This document shows, in pieces, positions 9,460 to 45,860 of a DNA stretch of 64,000 nucleotides. The notes under the pieces were generated by a model. The model made no database searches and had not been told where the DNA came from. It saw only the letters and a list, made by a program, of their open reading frames with translations. Numbering within the stretch: the first letter of the stretch is position 1; each line of letters opens with the position of its first letter. This stretch comes from a virus (Duplodnaviria > Heunggongvirae > Uroviricota > Caudoviricetes): positions 9,241 through 73,240 of IMG/VR virus record IMGVR_UViG_2562617057_000010; one strand, 5' to 3'. Made by a program: the position numbers and the translations under genes.

Positions 9460-9503
9460 CGTGCCCGCCTGAAGCCGTGGGGCTTTTATGACTAGGTAAT
9501 TTA

Positions 9504-9640
9504 TTCAAGATAACCGGGAAGAGATTAAAAAAGACGGGAATAGATTGGAATCAACAAGTTAGGAACTCAAGGTTTTCAAGATAAAGCGAGTCCAAAAATG
9601 TTAAACGGTTCGATATCAATAAAACATTCAAGATAACTCA
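9504..9640 (+). repeat. Mu-like left end: three transposase-binding-type repeats TTCAAGATAA (9504-9513, 9575-9584, 9627-9636)
   Basis: Same 10-mer three times within 135 bp; reverse complement TTATCTTGAA occurs three times at the other end of the element. Confidence 0.6.
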
Positions 9641-9760
9641 CAGGTTCTTACAATAGCCTTTAAAGACCGTTCAAAAACGATTCAGGTGTTTATTATAGCG
9701 CTGATGGGTGCAAGCGCCAAAACCAATGTAATTTTAGCACAGCTAGGCACTTGCACTGGG

Positions 9761-10381
9761 TTATGCGCTGGCTGCTTTCTGAGGTAGATTTAAGTGATCG
9801 CCCTTAGCTTCGGACAACGCGTAAATCTCTCTAACCTTTTCGTCTGGCAAATTACCAAGGCTTAACGCTATGGCTCTACGAACTCCAACTAGAGCGTGCA
9901 ACTCTTGGATGTGCTCATCCAGAAGAATGAGTAATTGCTCCGCTCCTTTTCTCCCAAGAACATCAGCTACTTGTTGTTTTTCTTGTGGTTTAAGAAATGA
10001 CAAGAACATTAGAATTTGAGCATCAACATTATCCGCATTCTCTTTTTTGGGTTCTTTGGAATCTTTTAGTTCAACATCACCCTCTCCCGTCATGAGCCAT
10101 TCCAAGGTAACATTTTCGCTTTCTGCTATCTTTTTTAACTGATGCGGGCGTGGTATCGGTGCGTAATCCCGCCTGTTGTAATAATTTTTTAAAGTGCCTT
10201 CATTGATCCCCCATGCCCGAGCAGCCGCATTTCTTGAAGGGTATCGTTCTACTAACCTAAAGATTCTTTCGATAATCGGTTCTTTTCCATCGGCAGGAAA
10301 AGAACCTTGGGGTGCTTTTCTCATTCTTGGTTCCTTTCTATCTAATTCATTGATAAATAATGAAATTAAAAAATAAACCAT
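9761..10381 (-). CDS. Mu c-type lysogeny repressor (HTH)
   Basis: Divergent from ner at the left end as in Mu; HTH-like segment RNAAARAWGINEGTLKNYY; true start may be internal Met at 10324. Confidence 0.7.
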   Translation of the reverse strand: MVYFLISLFINELDRKEPRMRKAPQGSFPADGKEPIIERIFRLVERYPSRNAAARAWGINEGTLKNYYNRRDYAPIPRPHQLKKIAESENVTLEWLMTGEGDVELKDSKEPKKENADNVDAQILMFLSFLKPQEKQQVADVLGRKGAEQLLILLDEHIQELHALVGVRRAIALSLGNLPDEKVREIYALSEAKGDHLNLPQKAASA

Positions 10382-10488
10382 AAAAACACCAAAGAACCCT
10401 TTACAAGGAATCTTTGGTATCTTAATCTTTATCCATACGGATATCCGACCGGATATCCGCGCGGGTAATTTTGTAGGGTAAAGGAAAG
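10382..10488. promoter_or_regulatory. early operator/promoter region between repressor and ner
   Basis: Two palindromes CGGATATCCG (10438-10447, 10450-10459) and inverted repeat CCAAAGA-N13-TCTTTGG (10391-10417) in the divergent intergenic region. Confidence 0.5.
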
Positions 10489-10740
10489 ATGAGACAAAGA
10501 GAAGATCGCGACCGCGATTGGCCTTCGCTAAAGATTCAGCTGGCGCTCAAAGATAACGGGTGGTCTTCCTTCCGGGAGCTTTCACTCCATGCTGGTTATG
10601 CTCAGGATTCACTGAAAGCGGTGGTTCGTACACCGAACAAAAAATACGAACGCGTAATTTCTGACGCTATAGGTGTACCGCCAGAAATCATCTGGCCCAG
10701 CCGGTATCGTAACGATGGATTTATCAGGAAGGCGTCGTGA
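10489..10740 (+). CDS. ner: Ner-type DNA-binding regulator
   Basis: 83 aa, first gene of the early operon, Ner-like layout (…IQLALKDNGWSSFRELSLHAGY…PEIIWPSRY). Confidence 0.8.
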   Translation: MRQREDRDRDWPSLKIQLALKDNGWSSFRELSLHAGYAQDSLKAVVRTPNKKYERVISDAIGVPPEIIWPSRYRNDGFIRKAS

Positions 10741-10741
10741 T

Positions 10742-12847
10742 ATGCAGTCGTACGTTACCGTAAATGACCTGCTCGGCGTACCAGGAATGCCAGCCACCAC
10801 AAAAGGCATCCGACAGGCGTTACAGCGTTTTTCTCGTGATCTTGGTGACGTTAGTCGCCGTCGGGAAGGCACAAAAGCCATTGAGTACCACATTGATTGT
10901 CTGCCTGAAATAACACGAAAGGCACTGCGTGAACGCTATGTGGAACAGCTGGTGGCTACAGAGAACAATGTTTCTGAAGTGAAAGCTGTTACCAGAAAAA
11001 CACGCAATCCTGACGCTGTCCAGGCAATCGAAGCATATCGCGGTTCTCCACAACTGATGGAAGAACGCCTGAATGCGCTGACCGAAAACCAGCGCCGGGT
11101 ATCTGAAGCAAGGGCTGCACTGGTGGTGGAGGTGCTGAAGCTGGAAAGCGACGGTAATCTCGGGCGACTGAAAGCCATCAACTTTCTTGTTGAAAAAGCC
11201 CGTAAAGGTGAATTACCGGAGCGCCTGCAACAAGCCGCAGTTAATGCCAATGCAAAGCGTGGTGCCAATCGCACCATCAGTCGTGACCCGCTTTATCAGT
11301 GGGTGCTGAAATACAACCAGTCGCAGAACGCAGCCGAACGACTGCTGTTACTGGCACCAGGAAAGCGCGACGAAATAAAACCGGAAGAAATTAGCTGGCT
11401 ACCTGAATTTCTGGCGCAGTATCGCCAGGCGAATGGCAGACCTATGTCAGAAGCCTACGAGGATTTTGTCGCGGAATGGCAGCGTCGCCATGCTGACGAA
11501 CCATACATGCTGGAGGTGATGCCTTCTTACGATGTGGTGCGTTATGCCATGAAGAAATTGCCGGAAGTGGTGAAACAAAAAGGGCGTGTTACCGGCAGTG
11601 AATACCGTCAGCTTGAAGGATTCACCCGCCGCGACTGGACAGCTATGCCGGTGAATTATGTCTGGATTGGTGACGGTCACGGTATGAAGCTGAAATGTGC
11701 GCATCCGGTTCACGGGCGTCCATTTTCGCCGGAAGTTACGTTTGTCATTGATGGTGGAACCCGGTTTGTGGTTGGCTGGAGTCTTGATCTTGCTGAAAAC
11801 GTGTTTGCTGTTGCCGGTGCGATACAGCACGGTATTCGTAATCACGGGAAACCCTTCCTGTATTACTCGGATAATGGTTCCGGTGAAACGGCAGACATGC
11901 TGGATAAAGAGATCGTCGGGATTCTGCCCCGTCTGGGGATTAACCACCCCACCGGTATTGCCGGAAATCCGCAGGGGCGCGGCATTATTGAGCGCCTGAA
12001 CCGGACGCTGCCGATGCGTATAGCCAGGAGGTATCGCACCTATTTTGGCAGGGGTGCTGACCGGGAATCGTTGCGAGTACTTAATCGTGATCTGCGTTCA
12101 GCGTTTAATGCCCTGCAACAGGACAAGCCGCTGAATGCTCGCCAGAAATCTGCAATGCGCGAGCTGCCGTCCTGGTCAGAACTGATTGAGGCTATTCGCG
12201 AAGGCGTGGAATGGTACAACAACCGCCCGCATTCTGAACTGCCGATGAAACCAAACGGGAAGCATTGCAGCCCGGCTGAGTTCAGGAAAAAACGCCTGGC
12301 GGAAGAAAACACCGAAATTGAGTGGCTGAGCGATCTTGAGCTGCGCGACATGTTCCGTCCGATGGTGGAGCGTCCGGTAAGACGCTGTGAAATCAAATGG
12401 CTTGGGAATATTTATTACGCGCCGGAGCTGCGTGATGAACATGGTCGCAAAGTGCTTATCAGCTATGACATTCATGATGCAGAGCGAATTACAGTGCGCC
12501 GTAAGGATGGCAGTTTTATTTGTGAGGCGATATGGAACGGCAATAAACGCGCAGCCTTTCCTGTCAGTGCGGAATATCACAAACAGCAGCAGCGTATTAA
12601 AGGAATGCGCAAACGCGCTGAGGGAAAAATTCGTGATGCTGAAGATGAAGGTATTCAGGTTATTGAACAAAAAACGACAGAACCCTGGCTGGGGAATGTT
12701 TATCGCCCTGTGGGTAATGTGGTGACAGTTCAGCCTCAGGCTCCTGAGGAGACGCTTGATAATGCATACAACGCTGAGCGTGATGAATATCTGAATCATT
12801 CACTGGATATTCTGGAACAGAAAAGACGTAAAAAGCTGTTTAATTAA
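10742..12847 (+). CDS. Mu A-type DDE transposase
   Basis: About 700 aa; core WIGDGHGMKLK...FLYYSDNGSGE; C-terminus ERDEYLNHSLDILEQKRRKK closely resembles the Mu A C-terminal region; ATG at 10742 just after ner stop (track ORF starts at 10673). Confidence 0.9.
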   Translation: MQSYVTVNDLLGVPGMPATTKGIRQALQRFSRDLGDVSRRREGTKAIEYHIDCLPEITRKALRERYVEQLVATENNVSEVKAVTRKTRNPDAVQAIEAYRGSPQLMEERLNALTENQRRVSEARAALVVEVLKLESDGNLGRLKAINFLVEKARKGELPERLQQAAVNANAKRGANRTISRDPLYQWVLKYNQSQNAAERLLLLAPGKRDEIKPEEISWLPEFLAQYRQANGRPMSEAYEDFVAEWQRRHADEPYMLEVMPSYDVVRYAMKKLPEVVKQKGRVTGSEYRQLEGFTRRDWTAMPVNYVWIGDGHGMKLKCAHPVHGRPFSPEVTFVIDGGTRFVVGWSLDLAENVFAVAGAIQHGIRNHGKPFLYYSDNGSGETADMLDKEIVGILPRLGINHPTGIAGNPQGRGIIERLNRTLPMRIARRYRTYFGRGADRESLRVLNRDLRSAFNALQQDKPLNARQKSAMRELPSWSELIEAIREGVEWYNNRPHSELPMKPNGKHCSPAEFRKKRLAEENTEIEWLSDLELRDMFRPMVERPVRRCEIKWLGNIYYAPELRDEHGRKVLISYDIHDAERITVRRKDGSFICEAIWNGNKRAAFPVSAEYHKQQQRIKGMRKRAEGKIRDAEDEGIQVIEQKTTEPWLGNVYRPVGNVVTVQPQAPEETLDNAYNAERDEYLNHSLDILEQKRRKKLFN

Positions 12848-12881: not shown

Positions 12882-13835
12882 ATGAATATTTCTGATATTC
12901 GCGAAGAACTACGCACACTTGTAGAAAGTGAAAAAGTCACTTTTAAACAAATTGCTATTGAGAGTGATATTTCTACCGGGACTGTCAGTGCGTTTATTAA
13001 CGATAAATACAGCGGCGATAATGAACGTATCGCACAGGTACTGAAGTGCTGGCTTGACGATTATCTTGCTGCCGCAGACCTGCCGGAATTGCCTGGTTTT
13101 GTTCAAACGCAGACGGTAAAACAAATCTGGACAAGTATACGCTTTGCCAGCCTGACAGAGAGTATTGCTGTTATCTGCGGTAATCCTGGTGTGGGTAAAT
13201 CTGAAGCAGCCAAAGAGTATCGCCGTACCAATAATAACGTCTGGATGATCACCATGGCACCATCCCGTGTCAGTGTTCTGGAATGTCTTACGGAACTGGC
13301 GTTTGAGCTGGGAATGAACGGTATCCCACGCTGCAAGGGGCCGTTATCCCGTGAATTGCGCCGTCGTCTTGGGGGAACGCATGGGGTGGTTATTGTAGAT
13401 GAAGCAGACCATCTTGATATTGCGGCGCTGGAAGAACTTCGTTTGTTACAGGAATCAACCCGTATTGGCCTGGTATTGATGGGTAATCACCATCTTTACA
13501 CGAATATGACGGGGGGGAGCAAAACGGTTGAGTTTGCCCGTCTGTTTTCGCGCATAGCAAAACGCACGGCTATCAAAGCGCCCAAAGTTAACGATGTAAA
13601 AGCGATTGCGGAAGCCTGGGATGTTACCGCCAAAAAAGAGCAGGAATTCTTACTGGAGATTGCACAGAAACCAGGTGCAATTCGCACCATGACTTACACA
13701 TTACGTCTTGCTGCCATGAATGCTTACGGTAAAGGCAAACGTGTTAACGAAGATTACCTGCGTGAGGCTTACGAAGAACTGGATCAGGATGTGGATGTTC
13801 AGGAACAGTTGGGTATAAGGAGAGCGAAATCATGA
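12882..13835 (+). CDS. MuB-type transposition ATPase
   Basis: 317 aa, Walker A GNPGVGKS and Walker [11 protein letters not shown]; follows the transposase. Confidence 0.85.
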
Positions 13836-14059
13836 TGTCACGAAATATAAAAATGGCAACGGATGCGCAGAACTGGTTACAGGCGCGCGGGAGTCATGTA
13901 AATGAATCATATCTCGGCGTGGCACGTCCGATTCTTGAAATCACTTACCCACCGGTGGAACTGGTAAAAAGCGCGGTCAGAATTATGGAGCATAAGTCCG
14001 GGGTGGCCCGTTCTGTATGGACGGCCCGTCTTAATGGTTGCCAGATTATCTGGAGATAA
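13832..14059 (+). CDS. hypothetical early protein (Mu kil position)
   Basis: 75-aa ORF overlapping MuB stop by 4 nt; position matches kil. Confidence 0.35.
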
Positions 14060-14292
14060 CGATGTGTACTAAAGCTGAAAAATATATTGAATGGGTTAAA
14101 CGGGTACAGAATAACAATGTGCCTCTGACTGCATTTAATTGCCCCAAATGCAAAGAGCAAATTATGACGCAATGCTCACCAGAAAATGAAGTATGGGACT
14201 CCTTTGCATGTTGTCCGTGGTGCAGCGCGGTTTTCTTTAAGCAGGTAAAAGGCGCGAAGGTAAAAGCCAGCGCAGTTATTCAGAATCAATAA
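14038..14292 (+). CDS. hypothetical early protein, zinc-ribbon-like
   Basis: 84 aa with CPKC...CCPWC cysteine pairs. Confidence 0.4.
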
Positions 14293-14303
14293 GGAGAAAC
14301 AAA

Positions 14304-14567
14304 ATGGCAAAGGTAATTATTGAAATTAAAAATACAGTATCTGGAACTAAAGGACGGCATTTGCGCACCAGTATTGCGGTAGGTGGTAGTGTGGAAATGG
14401 AAGGGGATGAGGCTACACTTGCAGGTCTGGTGGCGTTATTGGTGCTTAACAAAAGCCAGAAAATAATTAATGAGTCAGCTCATGAAGCCATTGAGATTTT
14501 GAAAAACGATGGTGTCATCACAGGTGGCAGTGTCACTGAAATGGCTGTTGAAAAAACATGTCACTGA
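14304..14567 (+). CDS. hypothetical early protein
   Basis: 87-aa ORF in co-directional early operon, AGGAG-like site upstream. Confidence 0.4.
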   Translation: MAKVIIEIKNTVSGTKGRHLRTSIAVGGSVEMEGDEATLAGLVALLVLNKSQKIINESAHEAIEILKNDGVITGGSVTEMAVEKTCH

Positions 14568-15001
14568 AAGGAACGCTGACAATGAATGTCAAAATCCGAA
14601 ATGAAATTCAGGCATTAATCCGAATTCAGGAACGCAATAACAACGGTGGTGAATTACGCGAGTTTATTTGCGCCCGGAAAGTTGATGATTGTGGTGAAAA
14701 GACTTACCTGATTGCCTTTGACCATTACAGCATTTGTGCACGTTACTGTGGTGAATCGATATTCTGTGCCATTGTGTATGGTAATGCGTTTGATGTGGAT
14801 TTATGGGAGTACGTTATGGACCGTGAATACATCTGCGCATCAGACCCGAAAGCCCGTGAGATGTGGCAGCGTATCTGGCGCGATTACCGGTTAATGGCAA
14901 AAGGCTGGGCACGCTGCTGTTATTCCTCGCTTGCCCTGAAAGCGGTTCAGTTATCGCTGCGGCATATTCCGGCATCACTGCGCGAGCCTCTGTTGTACTG
15001 A
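14558..15001 (+). CDS. hypothetical early protein
   Basis: 147-aa ORF, tightly packed with neighbours. Confidence 0.45.
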   Translation: MSLKGTLTMNVKIRNEIQALIRIQERNNNGGELREFICARKVDDCGEKTYLIAFDHYSICARYCGESIFCAIVYGNAFDVDLWEYVMDREYICASDPKAREMWQRIWRDYRLMAKGWARCCYSSLALKAVQLSLRHIPASLREPLLY

Positions 15002-15301
15002 GTGGTGACCGGAATGATGTGTAAGCGTAAACGCTGGTCACGCGAAGACCGGGAATTTATCGAAGCCAGTGTCGGGAAAATGACCGTCGAGGAAATGGCG
15101 AAAAAACTGAACGTTGCCCCAACAGCCCTACAGGCACATGCCAGAAGGCACGGAATATCGTTGTGTGCATACCGGGTCAGTGAGCACGACAAATATTTGT
15201 GTCGTGAACTTTATAAAGAAGGGCTGGCTATTCATGTCATTGCCCAAAAGATGGAATTAAGCAATCGTGCTGTATCCGGCATTGTATACAGCGAATATTA
15301 A
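15002..15301 (+). CDS. hypothetical early protein
   Basis: 99-aa ORF in early operon. Confidence 0.45.
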   Translation: MVTGMMCKRKRWSREDREFIEASVGKMTVEEMAKKLNVAPTALQAHARRHGISLCAYRVSEHDKYLCRELYKEGLAIHVIAQKMELSNRAVSGIVYSEY

Positions 15302-15319
15302 TTAACAGGAGCTTTATTT

Positions 15320-15844
15320 ATGGCTAAATCAGCAAAACGAATCAGGAACGCCGCAGCGGCTTATGTTCCGCAATCCCGCGATGCTGTGGTATGTGATATC
15401 CGCCGGATTGGGAACCTGCAACGCGAAGCGGCACGACTTGAAACGGAAATGAATGACGCTATCGCTGAGATTACGGAGAAATTTGCAGCCCGGATTGCAC
15501 CGCTTAAAACCGATATTGAAACCCTTTCAAAAGGCGTTCAGGGATGGTGTGAAGCGAACCGCGACGAACTGACGAACGGCGGCAAAGTGAAGACGGCAAA
15601 TCTTGTCACCGGCGATGTATCATGGCGTCAACGCCCGCCGTCAGTGAGCATTCGCGGCGTGGATGCCGTGATGGAAACGCTGGAGCGTCTTGGCCTGCAA
15701 CGCTTTATTCGCACGAAGCAGGAAATCAACAGGGAAGCGATTTTACTGGAACCGAAAGCGGTCGCAGGCGTTGCCGGAATTACGGTTAAATCGGGAATTG
15801 AAGATTTTTCCATTATTCCGTTTGAACAGGATGCCGGTATTTAA
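15320..15844 (+). CDS. gam: Gam host-nuclease inhibitor (Mu Gam-like)
   Basis: 174 aa, same length and early-region position as Mu Gam. Confidence 0.75.
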   Translation: MAKSAKRIRNAAAAYVPQSRDAVVCDIRRIGNLQREAARLETEMNDAIAEITEKFAARIAPLKTDIETLSKGVQGWCEANRDELTNGGKVKTANLVTGDVSWRQRPPSVSIRGVDAVMETLERLGLQRFIRTKQEINREAILLEPKAVAGVAGITVKSGIEDFSIIPFEQDAGI

Positions 15845-15936
15845 TACCACCATTAATATTTAATTAATTCACATTCTTTTAATTATTGGCGCGATGCGTC
15901 AGGGGACTACTCGCGCCTGAATCAGAACCGGAGAGA

Positions 15937-16491
15937 ATGAAAATGACAGCATGTGCTTATTTTAAACTGAGTGACACAGCCGCTAACGCTTATACGATTC
16001 GCTGGCTGAAAGATGTTTCTGTTAAGCGTGACAAAATCATCTGCTCATTGCAGCGTGCGTTTGGCGCAGACGGTGTTTCCCTTGTCAGTAACAGAGGGTA
16101 TGAACGGGTTGAATGTATCTGGATGAATCAATTAGCGCCGGAATTATGGCGTGGTAAATCAGACGGACTGTTTATTGGTGGATTTCCGTTTTATGGCGTT
16201 GTACCGGATATAACAACACCGGAAGGCCGAAACAATGCGACGCTTATTCAGGAACATGAAGAGCAACTCCGGAAATATCCCACATTCCCGGTCTGGTTGT
16301 GTAATGAACTCGGGGTTGATGTTGTACCCAACATGTTTGATCTCAAATCAGTCTGGACGATGCACCACAGCCGTGACGGATTCGGCATTTTGTTTGAGGT
16401 GTGCCTGCTGGATGGTGAGGTTAAGGGACCGGTTCCTGCCGAATGCCAGCGCATTAAACATTCTGAATTTGTGGCACTGACGGAGGAATAA
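15937..16491 (+). CDS. hypothetical early protein
   Basis: ATG at 15937 preceded by GGAGAG; track ORF begins at 15886. Confidence 0.5.
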   Translation: MKMTACAYFKLSDTAANAYTIRWLKDVSVKRDKIICSLQRAFGADGVSLVSNRGYERVECIWMNQLAPELWRGKSDGLFIGGFPFYGVVPDITTPEGRNNATLIQEHEEQLRKYPTFPVWLCNELGVDVVPNMFDLKSVWTMHHSRDGFGILFEVCLLDGEVKGPVPAECQRIKHSEFVALTEE

Positions 16492-16494
16492 CCG

Positions 16495-17025
16495 GTGATT
16501 GATGCAAAAGTTCTGAACGGTGTCAGCACATTATTACGGGCTCACGGGCGTCTGACCTGTGGGGTTCTGGCAGAGAAAATGCAAATGCCACCCTCTGCAA
16601 TGGTGTATTTCCTGCGTGATGCAGTTGATGCCGGTGCACTGACTGAGCTGAATGGCTTTTACGATGTTCCGCGCCCTCGTCCGACGCTGCCTGTAAGACA
16701 AAACGCAACAGAGCAGCCTTCTGTTGATGATGCGGTGTGGTGCAACTGGCGTCGCTCATTACCCTGGGTGGAAGGTAATACCATCCCCGCGCTGGCAAAA
16801 GAGTTTGCGACGGGCGTGCTGACCTGTGAGTCAGTCCACATTGTTGCTGAGGTGGATAACAGAATGTGCGAACAGGGAATGCCCCGTTTTGTGATGGCTT
16901 ATATCGATATCCGGCTGGGGCGTTTTATTTGCAGTTCAAGCGCCTGGAATATCACCGACCATGTACTGCGTTATCTCATTCTTGATTGTTCTCCGGCTCC
17001 CGCAGCGGTGCAGGAGGTGGCGTGA
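16495..17025 (+). CDS. hypothetical early protein
   Basis: 176 aa, GTG start with GGAGGAA upstream. Confidence 0.5.
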   Translation: MIDAKVLNGVSTLLRAHGRLTCGVLAEKMQMPPSAMVYFLRDAVDAGALTELNGFYDVPRPRPTLPVRQNATEQPSVDDAVWCNWRRSLPWVEGNTIPALAKEFATGVLTCESVHIVAEVDNRMCEQGMPRFVMAYIDIRLGRFICSSSAWNITDHVLRYLILDCSPAPAAVQEVA

Positions 17026-37965: not shown

Positions 37966-39091
37966 TACCGTCACGCTGCGAACGGATGGCAGGCTTTTTA
38001 CCGGCTGGACGTCAGTCTCTGTCACCCGCTCGATTGAATCCGTAGCCGGATATTTTGAGCTGGGGGTGAACGTGCCACCGGATACGGATTTATCCGGGCT
38101 GGCACCGGGGAAGGCGTTCACGCTGGAAATCGAGGGGCAGATTGTCTGCACCGGTTATATCGATTCACGGCGACGCCAGATGACCGCTGACAGTATAAAA
38201 ATCACTGTCGCCGGACGTGACAAAACGGCTGACCTGATTGACTGTGCTGCCGTTTACAGTGGCGGACAGTGGAAAAACCGCACACTGGAGCAGATTGCGC
38301 GTGACCTGTGCGCCCCTTATGGCGTTACCGTTCGCTGGGAGCTTTCCGATAAGGAAAGTTCGGCAGTTTTTCCCGGCTTCACGCTGGACCATTCAGAAAC
38401 CGTTTATGAGGCGCTGGTGCGCGCCTCCCGCGCACGCGGTGTACTGATGACCAGCAATGCCGCCGGAGAGCTGGTATTCAGCCGGGCTGCCAGCACAGCC
38501 ACTGATGAGCTGGTTCTCGGAGAAAATCTGCTGACACTGGATTTTGATGAAGATTTCCGCGACCGGTTCAGCGAATACATTGTTAAGGGATATGCACGCG
38601 CGAACGGCGCTGACGGGGATGATATTGATGCGGAAAGTATTGTCTCCCGGAAAGGAACCGCCACTGACAGTGATGTGACCCGTTACAGACCGATGATCAT
38701 CATTGCTGACAGCAAAATTACGGCGAAGGATGCACAGGCCCGCGCCCTGCGTGAGCAACGCCGCAGACTGGCAAAATCCATCACTTTTGAGGCAGAAATT
38801 GACGGATGGACACGCAGGGACGGGCAACTCTGGATGCCGAATCTGCTGGTCACTATTGATGCCTCGAAATATGCCATCAAAACCACGGAATTACTGGTCA
38901 GCAAAGTCACCCTGATACTGAATGACCAGGACGGGCTGAAAACCCGCGTCAGCCTTGCACCACGCGAAGGCTTTCTGGTGCCGGTTGAAAGCGACCGCAA
39001 ATCCAGAGGGGATGGTAATGATGGCGTTGATGATCTGGTTGAGGCTTATTTCCGCAGACACCCGGAGAAAACACCACCATGGAAAGAGTAA
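37958..39091 (+). CDS. baseplate hub protein (Mu P / gp44-like)
   Basis: 377-aa ORF in Mu baseplate order N-P-Q-V-W-R. Confidence 0.7.
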
Positions 39092-39672
39092 ATGATTCCG
39101 CCCTGAACCGCCTGCTGATGCCGTTGATGCGTCGTGTACGGCTGATGGTGGCCCGCGCCGTTGTTAACGTGATTCACGACGGGCGAAAGGTTCAGAACCT
39201 GCAGGTCGGTCTGCTGGATGATGAGGAATCTGATGATGTGGAGCGCCTGCAAAATTACGGGCATTTCAGCGTTCCCCTGCCGGGCGCAGAAGCGCTGATT
39301 GCCTGTGTGGGCGCACAACGTGATCAGGGGATTGCCGTTGTGGTGGAAGACCGCCGCTACCGCCCGACAAATCTTGAACCGGGAGATGCAGGCATTTACC
39401 ACCACGAGGGGCATCGTATCAGGCTGACAAAGGACGGACGCTGCATCATTACCTGTAAAACGGTTGAGGTTTACGCTGATGAAAGTATGACCGTTGACAC
39501 CCCGAAAACCACGTTTACCGGCGATGTTGAAATTCTGAAAGGCCTCAGCGTTAAAGGTGAAAGTGACTTTGCAGGCAATATCAGCGCCCCGGATGCCATC
39601 ATCAATGGCAAATCGACGGATAAGCATATCCACCGTGGCGACAGCGGCGGAACCACGGGGCCGATGCAATGA
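39079..39672 (+). CDS. baseplate spike/assembly protein (Mu gp45-like)
   Basis: 197-aa ORF. Confidence 0.65.
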   Translation: MERVNDSALNRLLMPLMRRVRLMVARAVVNVIHDGRKVQNLQVGLLDDEESDDVERLQNYGHFSVPLPGAEALIACVGAQRDQGIAVVVEDRRYRPTNLEPGDAGIYHHEGHRIRLTKDGRCIITCKTVEVYADESMTVDTPKTTFTGDVEILKGLSVKGESDFAGNISAPDAIINGKSTDKHIHRGDSGGTTGPMQ

Positions 39673-40106
39673 CCGATTTAGCCATTATCTGGACGAACGG
39701 ACGCGGCGATATTGCACAGGATGGCATTGATATGCTGACCGACGACAGCCTGACAACCGATGTGACAATCTCCCTGTTTACCGACCGGCGCGCGCTGGAT
39801 TCTGACACCCTGCCGGATGGTTCAGATGATCGCCGTGGATGGTGGGGTGACAGTTACCGCGACCGCCCCATCGGTTCGCGGTTGTGGCTGTTATCACGTG
39901 AAAAAGCCACACCGGATACGCTGGAACGCGCCAGAGGGTATGCCGAAGAGGCGCTGGAATGGCTGAAAACAGCGGGCCGGGTAAGTGCGGTTAACGTCAG
40001 AGCGGAACAGTTACATCAGGGCTGGTTATACCTCTACATTGCACTGACATTACCGGATGGTTCCGTTATTCCTTATGAGTTTAAAGCAGCATTTAACGGG
40101 GTTTAA
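39669..40106 (+). CDS. baseplate wedge protein, gp25/gpW-like (Mu gp46 position)
   Basis: 145-aa ORF. Confidence 0.6.
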   Translation: MTDLAIIWTNGRGDIAQDGIDMLTDDSLTTDVTISLFTDRRALDSDTLPDGSDDRRGWWGDSYRDRPIGSRLWLLSREKATPDTLERARGYAEEALEWLKTAGRVSAVNVRAEQLHQGWLYLYIALTLPDGSVIPYEFKAAFNGV

Positions 40107-41189
40107 ATGGCTTATTCACCACCGACATTATCATCGCTGATTGCCCGTACAGAACAGAATATTGAACAGCGCCTGCCGGGTAGCTGGCCTCAGGCCCGTG
40201 AAAAAACGCTGAGTGCCATTGCTTATGCTCAGGCGGGCCTTGCTGCCGGTTGTTACGAGCATATTTCATGGGTTGGACGGCAGATTATCCCGTCGACAGC
40301 AGATGAAGATGAGTTGCTGGAGCACTGCCGGTTCTGGGGCGTGCGCCGCAAACAGGCGACAGCCGCCAGCGGCCCGCTGACTGTCACCACATCGGCAGCG
40401 ACCACCATTCCTGCCGGTACACGCTGGCAGCGTGCTGATGGTGTGGTTTACAGCCTGGCTGATGCCATTGTGATTGACCGTGCAGGAACGACGGAAATTA
40501 CCGTTACCGCACTGGCTGCCGGTGAGGCAGGAAATACCGGTGAGAATACCCTTTTAACGTTGATTACTCCGGTTGCCTGTGTTGTTTCCGATGCCATCAC
40601 TGTAAAAGGGTTTTCCGGTGGAGCTGATATTGAGAGTGCAGCGGAGCTGCTGTCACGGCTGGAATATCGTGTCCAGTATCCTCCGTTCGGCGGTAATCAG
40701 TTTGATTATGTTCGCTGGGCGCGTGAAGTCAGCGGCGTTACCCGTGCCTGGTGTTTTCCGACATGGAAAGGCGGTGGCACAGTCGGGGTGACGTTTGTTA
40801 TGGATAACCGGAGCAATATTTTTCCACAACCGGCAGATGTGGAACGTGTGGCGGATTATATCGCCGGTCATACTGACCCGATAACCGGCCTGATTGTCGG
40901 GCAGCCTGATGGTGTAAATGTCACGGTATTTGCGCCAGAGTCAAAGCCGGTAAATCCACGGATTTATATATCACCGAAGACTGCCGAACTGAAACAGGCC
41001 ATTACCCACGCCATTAATACCATGTTTTTTAATGAGGTGACGCCGGGCGGTGCACTTGCCCCCTCCCGTATTATCCGTGCGGTGGCAGGTGTTACCGGTC
41101 TGGATGATTTTGAAGTGCGTTTCCCGACAGAGATCCAGCGTTCGGAGAATACGGAACTGTTAACACCGGGGACAATTGAATGGCTGTAA
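40107..41189 (+). CDS. baseplate J-like protein (Mu gp47 position)
   Basis: 360-aa ORF. Confidence 0.75.
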   Translation: MAYSPPTLSSLIARTEQNIEQRLPGSWPQAREKTLSAIAYAQAGLAAGCYEHISWVGRQIIPSTADEDELLEHCRFWGVRRKQATAASGPLTVTTSAATTIPAGTRWQRADGVVYSLADAIVIDRAGTTEITVTALAAGEAGNTGENTLLTLITPVACVVSDAITVKGFSGGADIESAAELLSRLEYRVQYPPFGGNQFDYVRWAREVSGVTRAWCFPTWKGGGTVGVTFVMDNRSNIFPQPADVERVADYIAGHTDPITGLIVGQPDGVNVTVFAPESKPVNPRIYISPKTAELKQAITHAINTMFFNEVTPGGALAPSRIIRAVAGVTGLDDFEVRFPTEIQRSENTELLTPGTIEWL

Positions 41190-41722
41190 CACCCTGGCAG
41201 ACGGCCTTTCTGCAATTACTGCCGTCAGGGCTTGCCTGGAATAAAAGCCCCGACAGCAAATTATCTGCGCTGGCGCAGGCCATCAGCGACGTGATTGCCA
41301 CTGCGGCGGATGATGCGCGGCAAATACTGCGGGAGCGTTTCCCGTCCACATCCCGCTGGTATCTGGGTGAGTGGGAATCACTTCTGGGGTTGCCGGACTG
41401 TACAAGCGAAAACGGCACCCTGTCCGAACGCCAGCGGGCTGCCGCGAATAAAATGCGTATGACCGGCAATCTGAGTCGGCGCTTTTATGAATGGCTGGCT
41501 GCGCAGTACGGTTTTACCGTCAGGCTGACGGATTCCACAGAAGGCCAGTGGGTTACGCAGGTCAATATTTACGGTATTAAAAATTATCGCAACGCAACGG
41601 TGCTGGATAATGTTCTGACGCCGTTACGTGTTTATGAATCGGGTGCGCTGGAATGTTTACTGGAGAAATATAAACCCGCGCATCAGATTTATAAATTTGT
41701 TTACCATGACGGAGATAACTAA
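41180..41722 (+). CDS. tail protein (Mu gp48 position, gpI-like)
   Basis: 180-aa ORF before the tail fibre gene. Confidence 0.6.
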   Translation: MAVTPWQTAFLQLLPSGLAWNKSPDSKLSALAQAISDVIATAADDARQILRERFPSTSRWYLGEWESLLGLPDCTSENGTLSERQRAAANKMRMTGNLSRRFYEWLAAQYGFTVRLTDSTEGQWVTQVNIYGIKNYRNATVLDNVLTPLRVYESGALECLLEKYKPAHQIYKFVYHDGDN

Positions 41723-43233
41723 TGTTTTATATTGATAACGACAGCGGCGTAACCGTCATGCCGCCCGTATCCGCCCAGCGTAGTGCTATCGTTCGCTGGT
41801 TTTCAGAAGGTGACGGGAATAATGTTATCACATGGCCCGGCATGGACTGGTTTAATATTGTGCAGGCGGAGTTATTAAACACGCTGGAAGAAGCCGGTAT
41901 TCAACCGGATAAAACAAAATTAAACCAGCTTGCACTGTCCATTAAAGCCATTATGAGCAATAACGCGCTGCTGATAAAAAATAACCTCAGCGAAATTAAA
42001 ACTGCCGGGGCATCAGCACAGCGTACAGCACGTGAAAATCTGGATATCTATGATGCCAGCCTGAACAAAAAAGGACTCGTTCAGCTAACCAGTGCCACTG
42101 ACAGCCCCAGTGAAACGCTGGCAGCCACCGCAAAAGCGGTGAAAATTGCGATGGATAATGCCAGTGCCCGTCTGGCAAAAGACCGGAACGGAGCAGATAT
42201 TCCCAATAAGCCGCTGTTTATCCAAAACGTCGGTTTACAGGAAACGGTAAACCGGGCCAGGAACGCTGTGCAAAAAAATGGCGATACCTTGTCCGGCGGA
42301 CTTACTTTTGAAAACAACTCAATCCTTGCCTGGATTCGGAATACTGACTGGGCAAAGATTGGTTTTAAAAATGATGCCGACAGCGATACTGATTCCTACA
42401 TGTGGTTTGAAACAGGCGACAACGGCAATGAATATTTCAAATGGAGACACCGCATCATTGGCACCCGGCCTAAAGACCTGATGAATCTTAAATGGAATGC
42501 TTTGTCTGTTCTTGTTAAAGCCCTTTTCAGCAGTGAAGTGAAAATATCGACAGTCAATGCACTGAGGATATTTAATTCATCTTTTGGTGCCATTTTTCGC
42601 CGTTCTGAAGAATGCCTGCATATCATCCCTACACGAGAGAATGAGGGAGAAAATGGTAATATAGGGCCATTACGCCCCTTTACGCTTAATCTCAGAACTG
42701 GCCGGATAAGCATGGGGCATGGTCTGGTTGTTACAGGAGATATATTTGCAAACCGTTTTGCAATTAACAGTAGTACCGGCATGTGGATTCATATGCGTGA
42801 CCAGAATGTTATTCTGGGCCGTAATGCGGTATCCAACGATGGTGCGCAGGCATTGCTTCGCCAGGACCATACCGACCGTAAATTCGTAATTGGTGGGCTG
42901 GGGAATAAGCAATTTGGCATCTACATGATTAATAACTCAAGGACAGCCAATGGCACCGATGGTCAGGCGTACATGGATAATAACGGTAACTGGCTTTGTG
43001 GTGCGCAAGTTATTCCCGGCAACTATGGCAATTTTGATTCCAGATATGTGAAAGATGTTCGACTTGGTACTCGTGTTGTTCAGGTCATGCAAAGAGGCGT
43101 GATGTATGAAAAATCAGGTCATGTAATAACAGGGCTTGGCATTATTGGCTCTGTTGATGGTGATGACCCAGCAGTATTCAGACCAATACAAAAATACATC
43201 AATGGCACATGGTATAACGTCGCACAGGTATAA
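41722..43233 (+). CDS. tail fibre protein S (constant part plus variable part Sv)
   Basis: 503 aa; gix-like site at codon ~167; C-terminus ...RPIQKYINGTWYNVAQV shared with the S' cassette end (...PVQYCINGTWYNAGSI). Confidence 0.85.
   Translation: MFYIDNDSGVTVMPPVSAQRSAIVRWFSEGDGNNVITWPGMDWFNIVQAELLNTLEEAGIQPDKTKLNQLALSIKAIMSNNALLIKNNLSEIKTAGASAQRTARENLDIYDASLNKKGLVQLTSATDSPSETLAATAKAVKIAMDNASARLAKDRNGADIPNKPLFIQNVGLQETVNRARNAVQKNGDTLSGGLTFENNSILAWIRNTDWAKIGFKNDADSDTDSYMWFETGDNGNEYFKWRHRIIGTRPKDLMNLKWNALSVLVKALFSSEVKISTVNALRIFNSSFGAIFRRSEECLHIIPTRENEGENGNIGPLRPFTLNLRTGRISMGHGLVVTGDIFANRFAINSSTGMWIHMRDQNVILGRNAVSNDGAQALLRQDHTDRKFVIGGLGNKQFGIYMINNSRTANGTDGQAYMDNNGNWLCGAQVIPGNYGNFDSRYVKDVRLGTRVVQVMQRGVMYEKSGHVITGLGIIGSVDGDDPAVFRPIQKYINGTWYNVAQV
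42218..42243 (+). other. gix-like invertase crossover site inside S (left G-segment boundary)
   Basis: TTATCCAAAACGTCGGTTTACAGGAA, imperfect 12-2-12 dyad of the gix/hix/cix type; no inverted second copy found. Confidence 0.6.
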
Positions 43234-43236
43234 ATC

Positions 43237-43764
43237 ATGCAGCATTTAAAAAACATCAGGTCAGGAAACCCAAAGATAAAAGAGCAATACCAATTAACAA
43301 AGAATTTTGACGTAATCTGGTTGTGGACAGAAGACGGAAAAAACTGGTATGAGGAAGTGAAGAACTTTCAGCCAGATACAATAAAGATTGTTTACGATGA
43401 AAATAATATTATTGTCGCCATCACTAAAGATGCCTCCACGCTTAATCCTGAAGGCTTTAGCGTCGTTGAGGTCCCCGATATAACAGCAAATCGTCGTGCC
43501 GATGATTCCGGGAAGTGGATGTTTAAGGACGGAGCTGTGGTTAAGCGGATTTATACGGCAGACGAACAGCAGCAACAGGCCGAATCACAAAAGGCCGCAT
43601 TGCTTTCCGAAGCTGAATCAGTCATCCAGCCGCTGGAGCGCTCTGTCAGGCTGAATATGGCGACGGATGAGGAACGCGCACGACTGGAGTCATGGGAACA
43701 CTATAGTGTTCTGGTCAGCCGTGTGGATACGGCAAATCCTGAATGGCCACAAAAGCCTGAATAA
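43237..43764 (+). CDS. tail fibre assembly protein U
   Basis: 175 aa; paralog of U' on the opposite strand ([22 protein letters not shown] vs [22 protein letters not shown]). Confidence 0.8.
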
Positions 43765-43769
43765 AAATT

Positions 43770-43789
43770 AAGGCCCGATAGCGGGCCTT
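43770..43789. terminator. bidirectional hairpin terminator between convergent U and U'
   Basis: AAGGCCCG-ATAG-CGGGCCTT perfect 8-bp stem with A-run upstream and T-run downstream. Confidence 0.6.
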
Positions 43790-43792
43790 GTT

Positions 43793-44326
43793 TCATTCTG
43801 GTTGTTCTGGAAACGTTACTGGCAGGCTGGAGGTGTCTGTGGATTCGACCTTCTGCGCATAGAGCATCCACTCGGTTAATTTTTGTTTATTCTCGTCGGA
43901 AATGATGCCCAGCCGTAGCTGTGAGTCCCATAGCTGAGTTTTATCCCTGACAAGTTGCAACAGACTTTGCTTTTCATTTTCCGCCTGTTGCCTCTGTTCT
44001 TCCCCGGTATAAGTTCGCTTTATCACTACGCCATCTTTGAACATCCATTTACCCGAAATATCAGCCCGGCGATTTGCTGTAATATCAGGTAATTCAATGA
44101 CGCTTGCGCCTTCCGGATTAATTGCTGAAACATCCTTTTCAATACAAATAATAACGCCGTTGTGGTCATAGACCATTTTCAACGTATCAGGCTGAAAGTT
44201 CTTTTGCTCCTCATACCAGTTTTTCCCATCCTCTGTATAAAGCCATTTGATGTTAAATTGCTTTGTTAGCTGGTATTGCTCTTTTGTTTCAGGATTACCA
44301 GCAGAAATGTTTTTTAAGTGCATCAT
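43793..44326 (-). CDS. tail fibre assembly protein U' (alternative cassette, not expressed in this orientation)
   Basis: 177-aa intact ORF paralogous to U. Confidence 0.75.
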   Translation of the reverse strand: MMHLKNISAGNPETKEQYQLTKQFNIKWLYTEDGKNWYEEQKNFQPDTLKMVYDHNGVIICIEKDVSAINPEGASVIELPDITANRRADISGKWMFKDGVVIKRTYTGEEQRQQAENEKQSLLQLVRDKTQLWDSQLRLGIISDENKQKLTEWMLYAQKVESTDTSSLPVTFPEQPE

Positions 44327-44328
44327 CG

Positions 44329-44841
44329 TTAAATACTCCCCGCGTTATACCACGTTCCATTAATGCAATACTGAACTGGCCTTGCCTGAGTTGTATCAAT
44401 TAGTGCATCTCTGTTTGAGTTAACGGAACCGGTAACAACATAACCTGACCTGTCAGACCAGCCGGGACCATTCCATGTCTGAACAGATGACAGACCACCA
44501 AGGCGAATACCTGTAATAAACCTTGAGTTACATTCTGCCTGCGTATATGCGCCAACATCTCTCGCTGATGGCTTGCGTGTTGTGGTGTAAAACTCTGACC
44601 AGCCAGCCTCAAATCCATAACCATCACGCGCTGAACGATAAAAAATACCGCCGTTCTTATAATTCACACGGAACTGTACAGCAGGGCAACTCCCCGTATT
44701 CATATTGAAGTGGAGTATTAATGCTGTTGCGCCTTTGATATCTGCATCATAAACACCGCTAATCAATGCAATATAGAAAACGACGATCGAATCAATTGAA
44801 TCGATCGGTAATACAGATCGATTATGTCCTGATAACCACAC
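44329..44841 (-). other. S' variable tail-fibre cassette remnant, 5'-truncated
   Basis: C-terminal fibre-tip homology to Sv; in-frame stop immediately upstream of the GTG at 44841; the first ~20 codons coincide with the mom GATC control region. Confidence 0.6.
44785..44819 (+). promoter_or_regulatory. three clustered GATC sites upstream of com-mom (Dam-dependent mom control region)
   Basis: GATC at 44785, 44803 and 44816, 75-110 bp upstream of com ATG, matching the known Mu mom regulation layout. Confidence 0.6.
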
Positions 44842-44893
44842 TCACCCCATGATGTTTTTTAAGATAGTGGCGAATTGATGCAAAGGAGGTGAG

Positions 44894-45082
44894 ATGAAAT
44901 CAATTCGCTGTAAGAACTGCAACAAACTGTTATTTAAGGCGGGTTCCTTTGATCACATTGAAATCAGGTGTCCGCGTTGCAAACGTCACATCATAATGCT
45001 GAATGCCTGCGAGCATCCCACGGAGAAACATTGTGGGAAAAGAGAAGAAATCACGCATTCTGACGAAACCGTGCGTTATTGA
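44894..45082 (+). CDS. com: Com zinc-finger translational activator of mom
   Basis: 62 aa, [16 protein letters not shown]...[12 protein letters not shown], matching Mu Com as recalled from memory; overlaps mom start. Confidence 0.85.
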
Positions 45083-45728
45083 GTATGAAGGCCAGATTGT
45101 TGGCTATGGTTCAAAGGAGCTGCGCGTTGAAACCATATCCTGCTGGCTGGCCCGCACAATCATTCAGACAAAACATTACTCCCGCCGTTTTGTGAATAAC
45201 TCTTACCTTCACCTGGGAGTATTCAGCGGACGTGAGCTGGTTGGCGTTCTCCAGTGGGGATATGCCCTTAACCCCAACTCAGGTCGTCGTGTCGTGCTTG
45301 AAACGGATAACCGGGGTTATATGGAGCTGAACCGCATGTGGCTACACGACGACATGCCCCGCAACTCTGAATCACGGGCCATCAGTTATGCGCTGAAAAC
45401 CATCAGATTACTGTATCCATCAGTGGAATGGGTACAGTCCTTTGCAGACGAACGCTGCGGACGTGCTGGCGTTGTGTATCAGGCGTCAAATTTTGATTTT
45501 ATTGGCGGCCATGAAAGCACGTTCTACGAGCTGGATGGCGAGTGGTATCACGAGATAACGATGAACGCGATTAAGCGCGGTGGACAACGAGGCGTGTATT
45601 TACGGGCTAATAAAGAGCGTGCCGTGGTGCATAAATTTAATCAGTATCGCTACATCAGGTTCCTGAACAAGCGAGCAAAGAAGCGGCTAAATACTAAGCT
45701 ATTCAGGATTCAGCCATATCCGAAATGA
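45003..45728 (+). CDS. mom: Mom DNA modification protein (acetyltransferase-like)
   Basis: 241-aa ORF overlapping com, Mu Mom-like, last gene before the right end. Confidence 0.85.
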
Positions 45729-45748
45729 TCCCATTTAATGAATAAAAA

Positions 45749-45772
45749 AACAGCGGTTAATGCCGCTGTTTT
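45749..45772 (+). terminator. rho-independent terminator after mom
   Basis: AACAGCGG-TTAAT-GCCGCTGTT hairpin followed by TTTT, overlapping the innermost right-end repeat. Confidence 0.6.
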
Positions 45773-45846
45773 ATCTTGAATAACTTCCATATGCGCGCTT
45801 CTGGCTTATCTTGAATGATTTCCATATCTATCTTGAATAATTTTCC
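45771..45846 (+). repeat. Mu-like right end: three inverted transposase-binding-type repeats TTATCTTGAA (45771, 45806, 45829)
   Basis: Reverse complements of the left-end 10-mer, compactly spaced; outermost copy with flank (GGAAAATTATTCAAGATA) mirrors the left terminus (GGTAATTTATTCAAGATA). Confidence 0.6.
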
Positions 45847-45860
45847 GCGCTTTACTTTCG

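Follow-up and report, generated by a model that had tools for sequence, protein, structure and literature searches.

Phages of the P2 family (Peduoviridae) are recognised by divergent Q-P and O-N-M-L gene clusters, and P2-like phages package their DNA from cos to cos in genomes of about 30-35 kb. Mu proper is characterised by TG...CA termini, a 5-bp duplication of the target, a MuA transposase whose N-terminal DNA-binding domain is also present in the repressor, and an invertible G segment with the gin invertase; Mu-like transposable phages in general have a DDE transposase encoded beside a MuB-type AAA+ ATPase. The classical Mu relative D108 has the body of Mu with a swapped left-end immunity region and transposase N-terminus. 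Among other transposable phages, phage B3 and transposable prophages of Leptospira make 6-bp duplications and have TA-TA or TG-CA termini (PMC8705779).

The DNA analysed here, of 64,000 nucleotides over its whole length (the window), comes from the chromosome of Escherichia coli GCA_000167915.2, a publicly deposited genome, in which it belongs to the whole-genome-shotgun scaffold AAKB02000001.1. Within a P2-family prophage of this chromosome lies a Mu-type element of 36,368 bp (Table 1), and there is little doubt that a Mu-type phage integrated by transposition into the already resident prophage, in the gap between genes M and L, with duplication of CTTT. Literature searches found no description of this nested prophage. 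Nesting as such is ordinary and expected behaviour for Mu; the 4-bp footprint of the element and the apparently modular transposase are of more interest.

Table 1. Features of the Mu-type element and of the P2-family prophage that contains it (positions in the window)
Feature	Position	Strand	Evidence
gpL-type head completion gene, first gene downstream of the insertion	8914-9384	-	PF05926, E 6.7e-36; 156 aa in RefSeq and other assemblies
Left CTTT copy of the target-site duplication	9483-9486		Empty site aligned with both junctions
Mu-type transposable prophage, 36,368 bp, termini TATGAC... / ...GCGCTTTA	9487-45854	+	Breakpoints against empty-site genomes; Mu identity; same termini in five other insertions
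Putative left-end transposase-binding repeats, each TTCAAGATAA: L1 9504-9513, L2 9575-9584, L3 9627-9636	9504-9636	+	Repeat search
Repressor, gene in the c position, 187 aa	9761-10324	-	PHROG 3037 (transcriptional repressor), E 1e-43
ner-type early regulator	10489-10740	+	PF13693; PHROG 769; 35% identity to Mu Ner
Transposase A, 701 aa, non-Mu clade with Mu-type C-terminal tail	10742-12847	+	PF09299, PF02316; PHROG 310, E 3e-194
MuB-type AAA+ transposition ATPase	12882-13835	+	PF09077, PF13401; 72-75% identity to MuB
Mu early, middle and lysis genes: kil, gam, gemA, mor, C, lys, gp23-27	13835-22894	+	tblastn; blastn blocks
Mu head and tail genes, terminase gp28 to baseplate gp48, all full length	23169-41722	+	90-99% amino-acid identity over full length
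G segment, locked in one orientation	41722-44766		S 41722-43233, U 43237-43764; on the minus strand U' 43793-44326, truncated S' 44329-44766
Deletion junction, about 1.1 kb lost	44741-44764		blastn blocks; alignment; equals Mu 34502-35613
com (44894-45082) and mom (45003-45728)	44894-45728	+	PF25680, E 3.6e-75; 97% identity to Mu Com and Mom
GC-rich hairpin with T-runs on both strands	45747-45772		Consensus scan only
Putative right-end binding repeats: R3 45771-45780, R2 45806-45815, R1 45829-45838 (TTCAAGATAG)	45771-45838	-	Repeat search
Right CTTT copy of the target-site duplication	45855-45858		Empty site aligned with both junctions
gpM-type small terminase subunit, stop codon 2 nt from the duplication	45861-46562	-	PF05944, E 9.9e-36; homologue is gpM in RefSeq
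N, capsid	46574-47623	-	Pfam; RefSeq annotation of collinear prophage; gene calls
O, scaffold	47672-48844	-	Pfam; RefSeq annotation of collinear prophage; gene calls
P, large terminase	48942-50765	+	Pfam; RefSeq annotation of collinear prophage; gene calls
Q, portal	50762-51817	+	Pfam; RefSeq annotation of collinear prophage; gene calls
ogr-like zinc finger	51868-52143	+	Pfam PF04606 below cut-off; RefSeq names homologue ogr/Delta-like

Insertion site and reconstruction of the empty site

The original prediction, that gpL-like and gpM-like genes bracket about 36.4 kb of Mu-type DNA, is upheld by the domain matches of both genes, and genomes with an empty site bear out that M and L are adjacent where nothing is inserted and that the P2-like prophage was there beforehand as the target of transposition. 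The proposed check, alignment of both flanks and rebuilding of the empty site, was run: M and L become adjacent, in a gap-free join, once 9487-45858 is removed. The match to the uninterrupted prophage ends at 9486 on the left and restarts at 45855 on the right, and CTTT, which is present as a single copy in the empty site, occurs as two direct copies around the element. After the same removal, the window could be aligned with two uninterrupted contigs over 12,471 bp without gaps and with 2-7 mismatches (99.94-99.98% identity), and it is collinear with the prophage of strain FDAARGOS_943 for 17.8 kb spanning the site. Empty sites were found in FDAARGOS_943, VL40 and four more complete E. coli genomes, with flank identities of 98.6-99.8%. 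The target is the 104-bp intergenic gap between M and L, in which the element occupies the M-proximal side, 2 nt beyond the gpM stop codon, and leaves 98-102 bp joined to L. The limits first assigned to the element (9460-45860) were slightly off, the homology breakpoints giving 9487-45854 plus the 4-bp duplication, and gpL, thought to extend to 9459, is placed by gene callers and RefSeq with its start at 9384.

As the source record is a whole-genome-shotgun scaffold, and some E. coli genomes hold repeated Mu-like sequences, a Mu-like prophage from elsewhere might have been misjoined into the P2-like prophage in a draft-derived assembly; this is highly improbable, since both joints fall exactly at the conserved termini of the element with a precise target duplication, excision of the element rebuilds the prophage without any gap, a single copy of the transposase was found in the record, and the identical left junction was assembled from an independent sequencing run (L022). 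Scarcely credible is the reverse order of events, in which a P2-like phage entered or came to surround a resident Mu prophage, or the P2-like arms are separate remnants: it has the bare arrangement of the sequence in its favour and nothing further, whereas the arms join into a single collinear prophage that carries an integrase of its own at its far end, they stop at the Mu termini rather than at an attachment site, the target duplication bounds Mu, the uninterrupted P2-like prophage exists in several strains at 99.9% identity, and no related strain was seen to have Mu at this position without the P2-like arms. The left junction as an exact string had no match among one-genome-per-species bacterial contigs, and the left-end repeat string had none among viral contigs; exact matches of proteins identified the source record. 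A look-up of the Mom protein for further right junctions returned the source genome alone.

Ends of the element and the 4-bp footprint

Five exact copies of TTCAAGATAA, three on the plus strand at the left end and two on the minus strand at the right, were found against a chance expectation of 0.09, and 0 of 100 shuffles reached five; the sixth copy of the repeat is TTCAAGATAG. They are arranged like transposase-binding sites L1-L3 and R1-R3, inverted between the ends, with L1 and R1 each beginning 17 nt in from the terminus. Inverted triplets had been predicted, and there are indeed three repeats at each end in inverted orientation, but they do not flank the element, since all of them are internal to it. 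The termini, TATGAC... and ...GCTTTA, amount to TA...TA, and not to the TG...CA of Mu proper.

The duplication is of 4 bp in all six independent insertions of this transposase clade that have both ends readable (the present one and five others), confirmed in two of the six against real empty sites; a canonical Mu insertion, which served as a control, gave the 5-bp duplication of Mu proper. Reading the junctions as duplications of 5 bp or 6 bp was considered and rejected, the extra base being in six of six cases the element's own left T or right A. No duplication is readable around the prophage of strain RM9088, the right end of which has been destroyed by IS elements. Literature searches turned up no account of Mu-like phages duplicating 4 bp. 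The insertion sites of the clade are the present prophage, the genes alr, gsiA and ybjS, positions beside cusS, metA and rihC, and a 136-kb plasmid record; in other assemblies, the identical 701-aa transposase with the identical left end is located beside metA and beside ispH/rihC.

A transposase clade of possibly exchangeable parts

Among 5,426 complete E. coli genomes, 248 have sequences related to this clade, the Sp18-type prophages of O157:H7 being examples, and such sequences also occur in isolated Mu-like phages of Yersinia. The N-terminal 220 or so residues of the transposase appear to change in step with the type of end repeat, TTCAAGATAA or TTTGATAC; the terminal bases and 4-bp footprint seem to be conserved along with the core; and the last 25 or so residues seem to go with one or another type of B protein. 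These patterns suggest a widespread clade with a 4-bp stagger, T(A/G)...TA termini and a transposase of three exchangeable modules, a tentative proposal whose chance of being both correct and not already described falls a little short of even. A 4-bp stagger, if true, widens the range of footprints among transposable phages, for which Mu gives 5 bp and B3 and the Leptospira prophages give 6 bp, and rules for finding ends that expect TG...CA with a 5-6-bp duplication would overlook the ends of this common E. coli clade or put them in the wrong place. These natural swaps appear to pair the N-terminus with the end repeats, the core with the cleavage geometry, and the C-terminal tail with the B partner, and such natural chimeras could be used to test how transpososomes of the MuA family set specificity and stagger.

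Gene content of the element

The element has the DDE transposase beside a MuB-type AAA+ ATPase that marks Mu-like transposable phages, and does not have the combination of MuA with a repressor sharing its N-terminal DNA-binding domain that marks Mu proper. Its transposase is 24% identical in amino-acid sequence to MuA and 92% identical to the A protein of the STEC346 prophage, with DDE residues that align, by inspection, with those of MuA. The repressor has no real sequence similarity to Mu c, and a likeness to the N-terminus of its own transposase, such as is known in Mu, was tested for and none was found. The remainder is attributed to Mu, with which the element is about 95% identical in nucleotide sequence over 12754-45780 (blastn blocks); megablast gave 95-98% identity to Mu, D108 and SfMu. 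This identity, together with the Pfam domains of the transposase, MuB and Mom, confirms the membership of the Mu family predicted from transposase, MuB, head, tail and com-mom genes. When every Mu protein was searched for by tblastn, those from B to mom were all full length except gp19, which is absent, gin, which had no match, and the 5' part of S'; amino-acid identities to Mu are 90-100% for most head, tail, lysis, late-regulation and com-mom genes and 79% for the tail fibre S. Relative to Mu there is an extra ORF at 15886-16491 (PHROG 2260), and a second extra-ORF region at about 22906-23076.

The element is of recombinant origin. Both ends, the repressor gene, ner and some 670 of the 701 codons of the transposase derive from an E. 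coli Mu-like lineage other than Mu, related to the Sp18-type and STEC346-type prophages and to the Yersinia phages vB_YpM_5/6; from the last 30 or so codons of A and gene B through mom the element is Mu. Its transposase would recognise the TTCAAGATAA repeats, use the TA termini and cut the target with a 4-bp stagger.

The stretch deleted at 44741-44764 comprises, in Mu, the 5' part of S', the right crossover site and gin. The left crossover repeat of the G segment is present at 42218-42257, and a search for its inverted partner found none; the invertible G segment with gin invertase of Mu proper is thus not found here. The deletion of gin is a sign of lesions starting to accumulate in the element. 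Its predicted completeness holds for the other Mu genes, which are full length, but not for gin, the right G crossover and the 5' part of S', nor does the transposition and immunity module belong to Mu.

The interrupted prophage and the state of both phages

With the insert removed, matches to PF04860, PF03237/PF17289/PF06056, PF05929, PF05125, PF05944 and PF05926 follow the order and orientation of P2, in the divergent Q-P and O-N-M-L clusters of the Peduoviridae; beyond gpM, the P2-type head and packaging genes extend over 46574-52143. The ogr-like gene scores 23.5 bits with PF04606, under the cut-off of 26.3. The genes after L (gpR-like, an unknown gene, DUF2586, HP1 Orf24-like, holin, lysozyme, Rz-like, chaperone and tape measure) are not in the P2 order of lysis and tail genes. 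The capsid of the host prophage shares no more than 56% identity with the capsid of any sequenced phage, and the replication endonuclease is about 90% identical to that of P88. The label P2-like, as originally given, therefore suits the head, packaging and replication modules and fits poorly the differently ordered tail module and the divergent capsid.

The P2-like prophage is probably no longer able to produce phage, because its late operon is cut and the composite genome would be about 70 kb when excised, roughly twice the length of the uninterrupted prophage; the argument from size draws on a 33-kb reference prophage and established P2 biology. The 36 kb of DNA now lying between M and L are in the opposite orientation and start, when entered from M, with a terminator-like hairpin; they would separate the O-N-M transcript from L and about 9 kb of close-packed tail and lysis genes. 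This predicted hairpin lies about 85 nt in from the right end of the element, on the strand that is read from M, and has the look of a terminator both for mom and for transcripts arriving from gpM. From L through the tail fibres the genes are contiguous, without another intergenic gap. The nesting would be a clean, fully reconstructable example of one temperate phage disabling another, and is a pitfall for prophage predictors, which would call a single prophage of about 70 kb.

Conceivably the insertion is not polar, and a late promoter in the 100 bp or so upstream of L, or read-out from the repressor promoter, drives L and the tail and lysis genes, leaving genome size alone as the cause of failure. 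The bases left attached to L would allow this, and consensus scans found a minus-strand promoter-like site at 9720-9692 that is aimed at L without an intervening terminator; it is nonetheless unlikely, as the gap is GC-rich and yielded no promoter-like match in such scans, and the TGT-N12-ACA dyad of P2 late promoters is absent from the relevant gaps and not enriched in the window (12 matches versus 17 expected). Transcription of the repressor gene runs toward L, and a consensus scan detected no terminator on the way, so that some read-out into L may occur. Also unlikely is that the Mu-type element is a decaying, immobile remnant and neither prophage is active, as might be supposed from the deletion of gin and the right crossover site, the truncation of S', and the visible degradation of its relatives (the FDAARGOS_943 copy is cut by ISEc60, and the RM9088 copy has IS66 elements and a truncated mom). 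Against this, gin and S'/U' are dispensable for growth of Mu in a fixed orientation, the other Mu genes are full length and 90-100% identical in amino-acid sequence, three predicted binding sites are kept at each end, the DDE residues line up with those of MuA, and other strains have the identical transposase at different loci. The Mu-type element should still be capable of lytic growth, because the essential genes of Mu are intact and its transposase recurs, identical, at further positions in other strains.

Comparison with known systems

The host prophage resembles P2 and P88 in its divergent Q-P and O-N-M-L clusters, gpL, gpM, P2-family capsid and candidate ogr-like zinc finger, and differs from P2 in the order of the genes downstream of L, where the gpR-like, DUF2586 and HP1 Orf24-like genes, lysis genes and tape measure follow one another. 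The inserted element has the gene order of Mu (NC_000929) throughout, and shares with it MuB, mor/C, the head and tail genes, the G-segment genes and com-mom, as well as three transposase-binding sites per end, of which L1 is apart from L2 and L3 and R1-R3 are close together. It is unlike Mu in having no nucleotide similarity over 9487-12754, a distant transposase and an unrelated repressor, in combining TA...TA with 4 bp where Mu combines TG...CA with 5 bp, and in lacking gin and gp19 while possessing the extra ORFs. D108 retains ends and a transposase core of Mu type, whereas in this element the core, both ends and the footprint length have all been replaced.

An identical hybrid plan is seen in Muvirus hybrids, the Yersinia phages vB_YpM_5/6 and the prophage of E. 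coli RM8082, which combine this type of transposase core with a Mu-type C-terminal tail, Mu-type B and a Mu body, and have the same terminal bases, TATGA... and ...GCGCGCTTTA. The RM8082 prophage has a transposase core of 97% amino-acid identity and a 4-bp duplication, and vB_YpM_5/6 are about 95% identical in nucleotide sequence from 11324 onward; both differ from the element in their end repeats (TTTGATAC), in the first 220 residues of the transposase (52% identical) and in having kept gin. The Sp18-type (O157:H7) and STEC346/VL40-type prophages belong to the same clade, with the middle of the transposase 87-94% identical and 4-bp duplications, and STEC346 and VL40 have TTCAAGATAA ends, the left end of VL40 being identical for 110 nt; these prophages differ in B (35-41% identical), in the C-terminal tail of the transposase and in their structural and lysis genes. 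B3 and the Leptospira prophages likewise illustrate that footprint length and terminal dinucleotide vary among transposable phages, with 6 bp in their case as against the 4 bp of this clade.

Insertion of a Mu-type element between the M and L genes of a P2-family prophage

The window contains nothing but two nested prophages. The gpL-type and gpM-type genes of the host prophage lie ~36.4 kb apart, and all genes between them are of Mu type, including those for the transposase (A), the MuB-type ATPase (B), tail fibre and assembly proteins, and Mom. P2-family capsid, scaffold, large terminase and portal genes adjoin M (Pfam), and a weak ogr-like zinc finger was detected near M (Pfam). The original prediction that Mu-type DNA separates L from M is borne out by these assignments, and its main interpretation, that a Mu-type phage inserted into a resident P2-like prophage, is correct.

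Comparison of each junction with complete E. coli genomes (megablast) identified the same P2-family prophage, without an interruption, in six genomes. The match to the left flank ends at window position 9486, the match to the right flank begins at 45855, and the two share four bases on the reference; the aligned sequences are GGGGCTTTCGTT at the empty site and GGGGCTTT[element]CTTTCGTT in the window. The alignment upheld the insertion itself, but placed its limits at these breaks in homology rather than at the 9460-45860 first proposed. When 9487-45858 is removed, the window is collinear with the prophage of strain FDAARGOS_943 (98.4% over 17.8 kb across the site). Two uninterrupted contigs that stem from other sequencing runs likewise align to this shortened sequence over 12,471 bp free of gaps, one differing at 2 positions and the other at 7. 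Where the prophage is uninterrupted, M is next to L across a gap of 104 bp; aligning the flanks to such relatives, the check suggested with the original prediction, recovered both the M-L adjacency and the empty site. The element occupies the M-proximal edge of this gap, 2 nt past the M stop codon.

The sequence is that of record AAKB02000001.1 of NCBI assembly GCA_000167915.2 (exact-protein match), which we take to be E. coli 53638, an enteroinvasive strain. A Mu G homologue from E. coli 53638 was listed in 2008 (PMC2628397). The left junction was also assembled in an independent run (SRR9425317), and a misjoin is ruled out by the precise termini, the duplication, the gapless reconstruction and the second assembly together. 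The M-L site is empty in all seven other carriers seen (six complete genomes and two distinct contigs). Nearly any site can take a Mu-type insertion, and prophage DNA tolerates such events well; given this near-random insertion and the empty site in other carriers, the nesting is an ordinary chance event with no hotspot, a fresh instance of a known phenomenon.

Features of the nested prophages (window positions)
Feature	Position	Strand	Description	Assignment
gpL-type head completion gene	8914-9384	minus		Pfam
ORF not in Mu	15886-16491		201 aa, between gam and gp11	PHROG 2260, function unknown
~275-bp insert relative to Mu	22894-23169		between gp27 and large terminase gene; small ORF ~22906-23076	
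gpM-type small terminase gene	45861-46562	minus		Pfam

Mu-derived body of the element

From 12754 to 45780 the element shares ~95% identity with phage Mu and with the Mu relatives D108, SfMu and PhiR68_1; no nucleotide similarity to Mu was found in its first 3.3 kb (9487-12754) or last 75 bp. A tblastn search with all 54 Mu proteins found B to Mom all full length, mostly at 90-100% identity, and did not recover gp19, Gin or the first 185 residues of S'. A deletion of ~1.1 kb, corresponding to Mu 34502-35613, has removed the 5' part of S', the right crossover site and gin, and no inverted partner was found for the left crossover repeat (42218-42257). Since the right site and gin are gone and the left repeat is unpartnered, the G segment is fixed in the orientation that expresses S and U, a state in which Mu, according to its established genetics, can grow on hosts that these two proteins recognise. 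The ORF between gam and gp11 is shared with the FDAARGOS_943 remnant described below. The gp27-terminase interval holds other small ORFs at the same spot in strain RM8082, and therefore appears to be a variable slot.

Termini and target duplication

The element begins with TATGAC and ends with GCTTTA, and is flanked by a four-base duplication; the same termini and duplication length were found in five more independent insertions of its clade. At none of the six does the fifth base match in either direction, since this base, a T or an A, belongs to the element itself. Joining the gsiA flanks under the 4-bp model matched empty sites of strains without the prophage at 67 of 67 bases. As a control, a prophage in nrdE of strain JCKP02 that has canonical Mu ends was put through the same procedure and showed a 5-bp duplication (ATCAG), the textbook length for Mu.

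Target duplications of the element and its relatives
Insertion	Site	Duplication
This window	P2-like prophage, M-L gap	CTTT
STEC346	alr	ATTC
06-00048	136-kb plasmid record (chromosome has same junctions)	TATA
VL40	next to cusS	TTCA
RM8082	ybjS	CGAA
O157:H7 F1273	gsiA	GGTT

Modular transposase

The predicted TTCAAGATAA repeats proved real, with five exact copies and one with a single mismatch in the element against 0.09 expected; there are three at each end, and L1 and R1 both begin 17 nt from the terminus. Among seven elements compared, transposase residues 1-220 co-vary with the end repeats, with 83-100% identity inside the group that has TTCAAGATAA ends but only 52-55% between these and elements with TTTGATAC ends (RM8082 and O157 F1273); Yersinia phage vB_YpM_5 likewise has TTTGATAC ends. 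Across the clade, identity in the middle region is 87-97%, accompanied by conserved terminal bases. The catalytic D, D and E of the element's transposase align by inspection with those of MuA. The last ~25 residues co-vary with the type of B partner: Mu-type B goes with a Mu-like tail (ERDEYLNHSLDILEQ.RRKK), and the STEC346-type B (35-41% identical to the element's B, 40-47% to MuB) with an alternative tail ending DDPLA. In the element, the recombination point is at ~12751-12754, within the 3' end of A. In MuA, domain I binds the ends, domain II is catalytic and the extreme C-terminus contacts B and ClpX, a plan that the putative module boundaries fit.

Strain VL40 carries, besides an uninterrupted P2-like prophage, a separate Mu-like prophage (3661204 onward) that matches the element exactly over its initial 110 nt and over transposase residues 1-220 but has a body of STEC346 type. 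Such a combination shows that the end and N-terminal module passed very recently between Mu-like bodies of different kinds.

Related copies and activity

Of 5,426 complete E. coli genomes, 248 hold sequences related to the transposase core, many O157:H7 strains among them. An identical 701-residue transposase with an identical left end adjoins metA in one assembly and ispH/rihC in another, which argues for recent mobility. Relatives carried by other strains show visible decay: the RM9088 copy carries IS66 elements, and FDAARGOS_943, in which the P2-like site is empty, has in narI a 7-kb left-end remnant of a close relative (1211839-1219188; transposase segment 99.9% identical), cut off by ISEc60 beside partial ansP. 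The sole lesion of the window copy is the gin deletion, and it is probably still capable of lytic growth.

In strain 06-00048 (NZ_CP015229.1), the right and left ends of one Mu-like prophage lie 101 kb apart in direct orientation (~1823919 and ~1925153), and the 136-kb plasmid record NZ_CP012497.1 consists of those 101 kb plus one prophage copy with identical junctions, which looks like either a Mu-mediated cointegrate and resolved circle or an assembly duplication. In STEC388 (NZ_CP041425.1, with four right-end matches), a left and a right end of a prophage of this kind each abut a fliH fragment (~2852469 and ~1939240), 0.9 Mb apart on opposite strands, suggesting a large inversion between prophage copies. 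The 'circular' record of vB_YpM_5 (MT374853.1, 4640-4740) has ~80 bp of unrelated sequence between the right and left ends, presumably packaged host DNA caught by the assembly.

Probable consequences for the host prophage

The Mu genes, on the plus strand, run against the O-N-M-L operon, which is read from the minus strand. On the strand read from M, a GC-rich hairpin of 10 bp with a T-run behind it lies ~85-110 nt inside the Mu right end, and a transcript leaving M would run into that end and meet the hairpin within about this distance. The tail and lysis genes downstream of L overlap or abut, with no further intergenic space, and therefore depend on sequence upstream of L. The ~100 bp still joined to L are GC-rich and gave no promoter-like match in a promoter scan, nor was a P2 late-promoter dyad found anywhere useful. 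The Mu repressor gene is oriented toward L, with a promoter-like site at 9720-9692 and no terminator-like site found between it and L, so that low-level transcription may read out of the element into L. On the plus strand, the insertion created a terminator-like hairpin and T-run (9464-9481), built from host CCCGCC...GTGGG, the duplication and the first element bases.

Independently of transcription, the excised composite genome would be ~70 kb, too large for a P2-type head, against ~33 kb for the uninterrupted prophage, and Mu-type prophages do not excise precisely at useful frequency; for these reasons the P2-like prophage has most likely lost the ability to form phage. Its resemblance to P2 is confined to the head, packaging and replication modules: its capsid reaches no more than 56% identity with the capsid of any sequenced phage, its replication region is ~90% identical to that of P88-type phages, and its gene order after L departs from that of P2.

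Comparison with known transposable phages

A Mu-like transposase clade common in E. coli emerges from these genome comparisons, marked by TA termini, a footprint of 4 bp and three co-varying modules; this by-product is worth modest follow-up. No report of a 4-bp duplication was found in the literature searched, though one may exist in papers beyond that search. The element transposase is 92% identical to that of the STEC346 Mu-like prophage, 81% to that of vB_YpM_5, 47% to that of Pseudomonas phage VW-6B, ~30% to those of D3112-type phages and 24% to MuA across most of its length. The layout of the TTCAAGATAA repeats is like that of the transposase-binding sites of Mu. The repressors of the element and of Mu are unrelated, and that of Mu resembles the N-terminus of its transposase, a similarity not found when the element's repressor was compared with its own transposase. 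Target duplications are 5 bp in Mu and 6 bp in B3 and in Leptospira prophages, the latter with TA-TA or TG-CA termini (PMC8705779).
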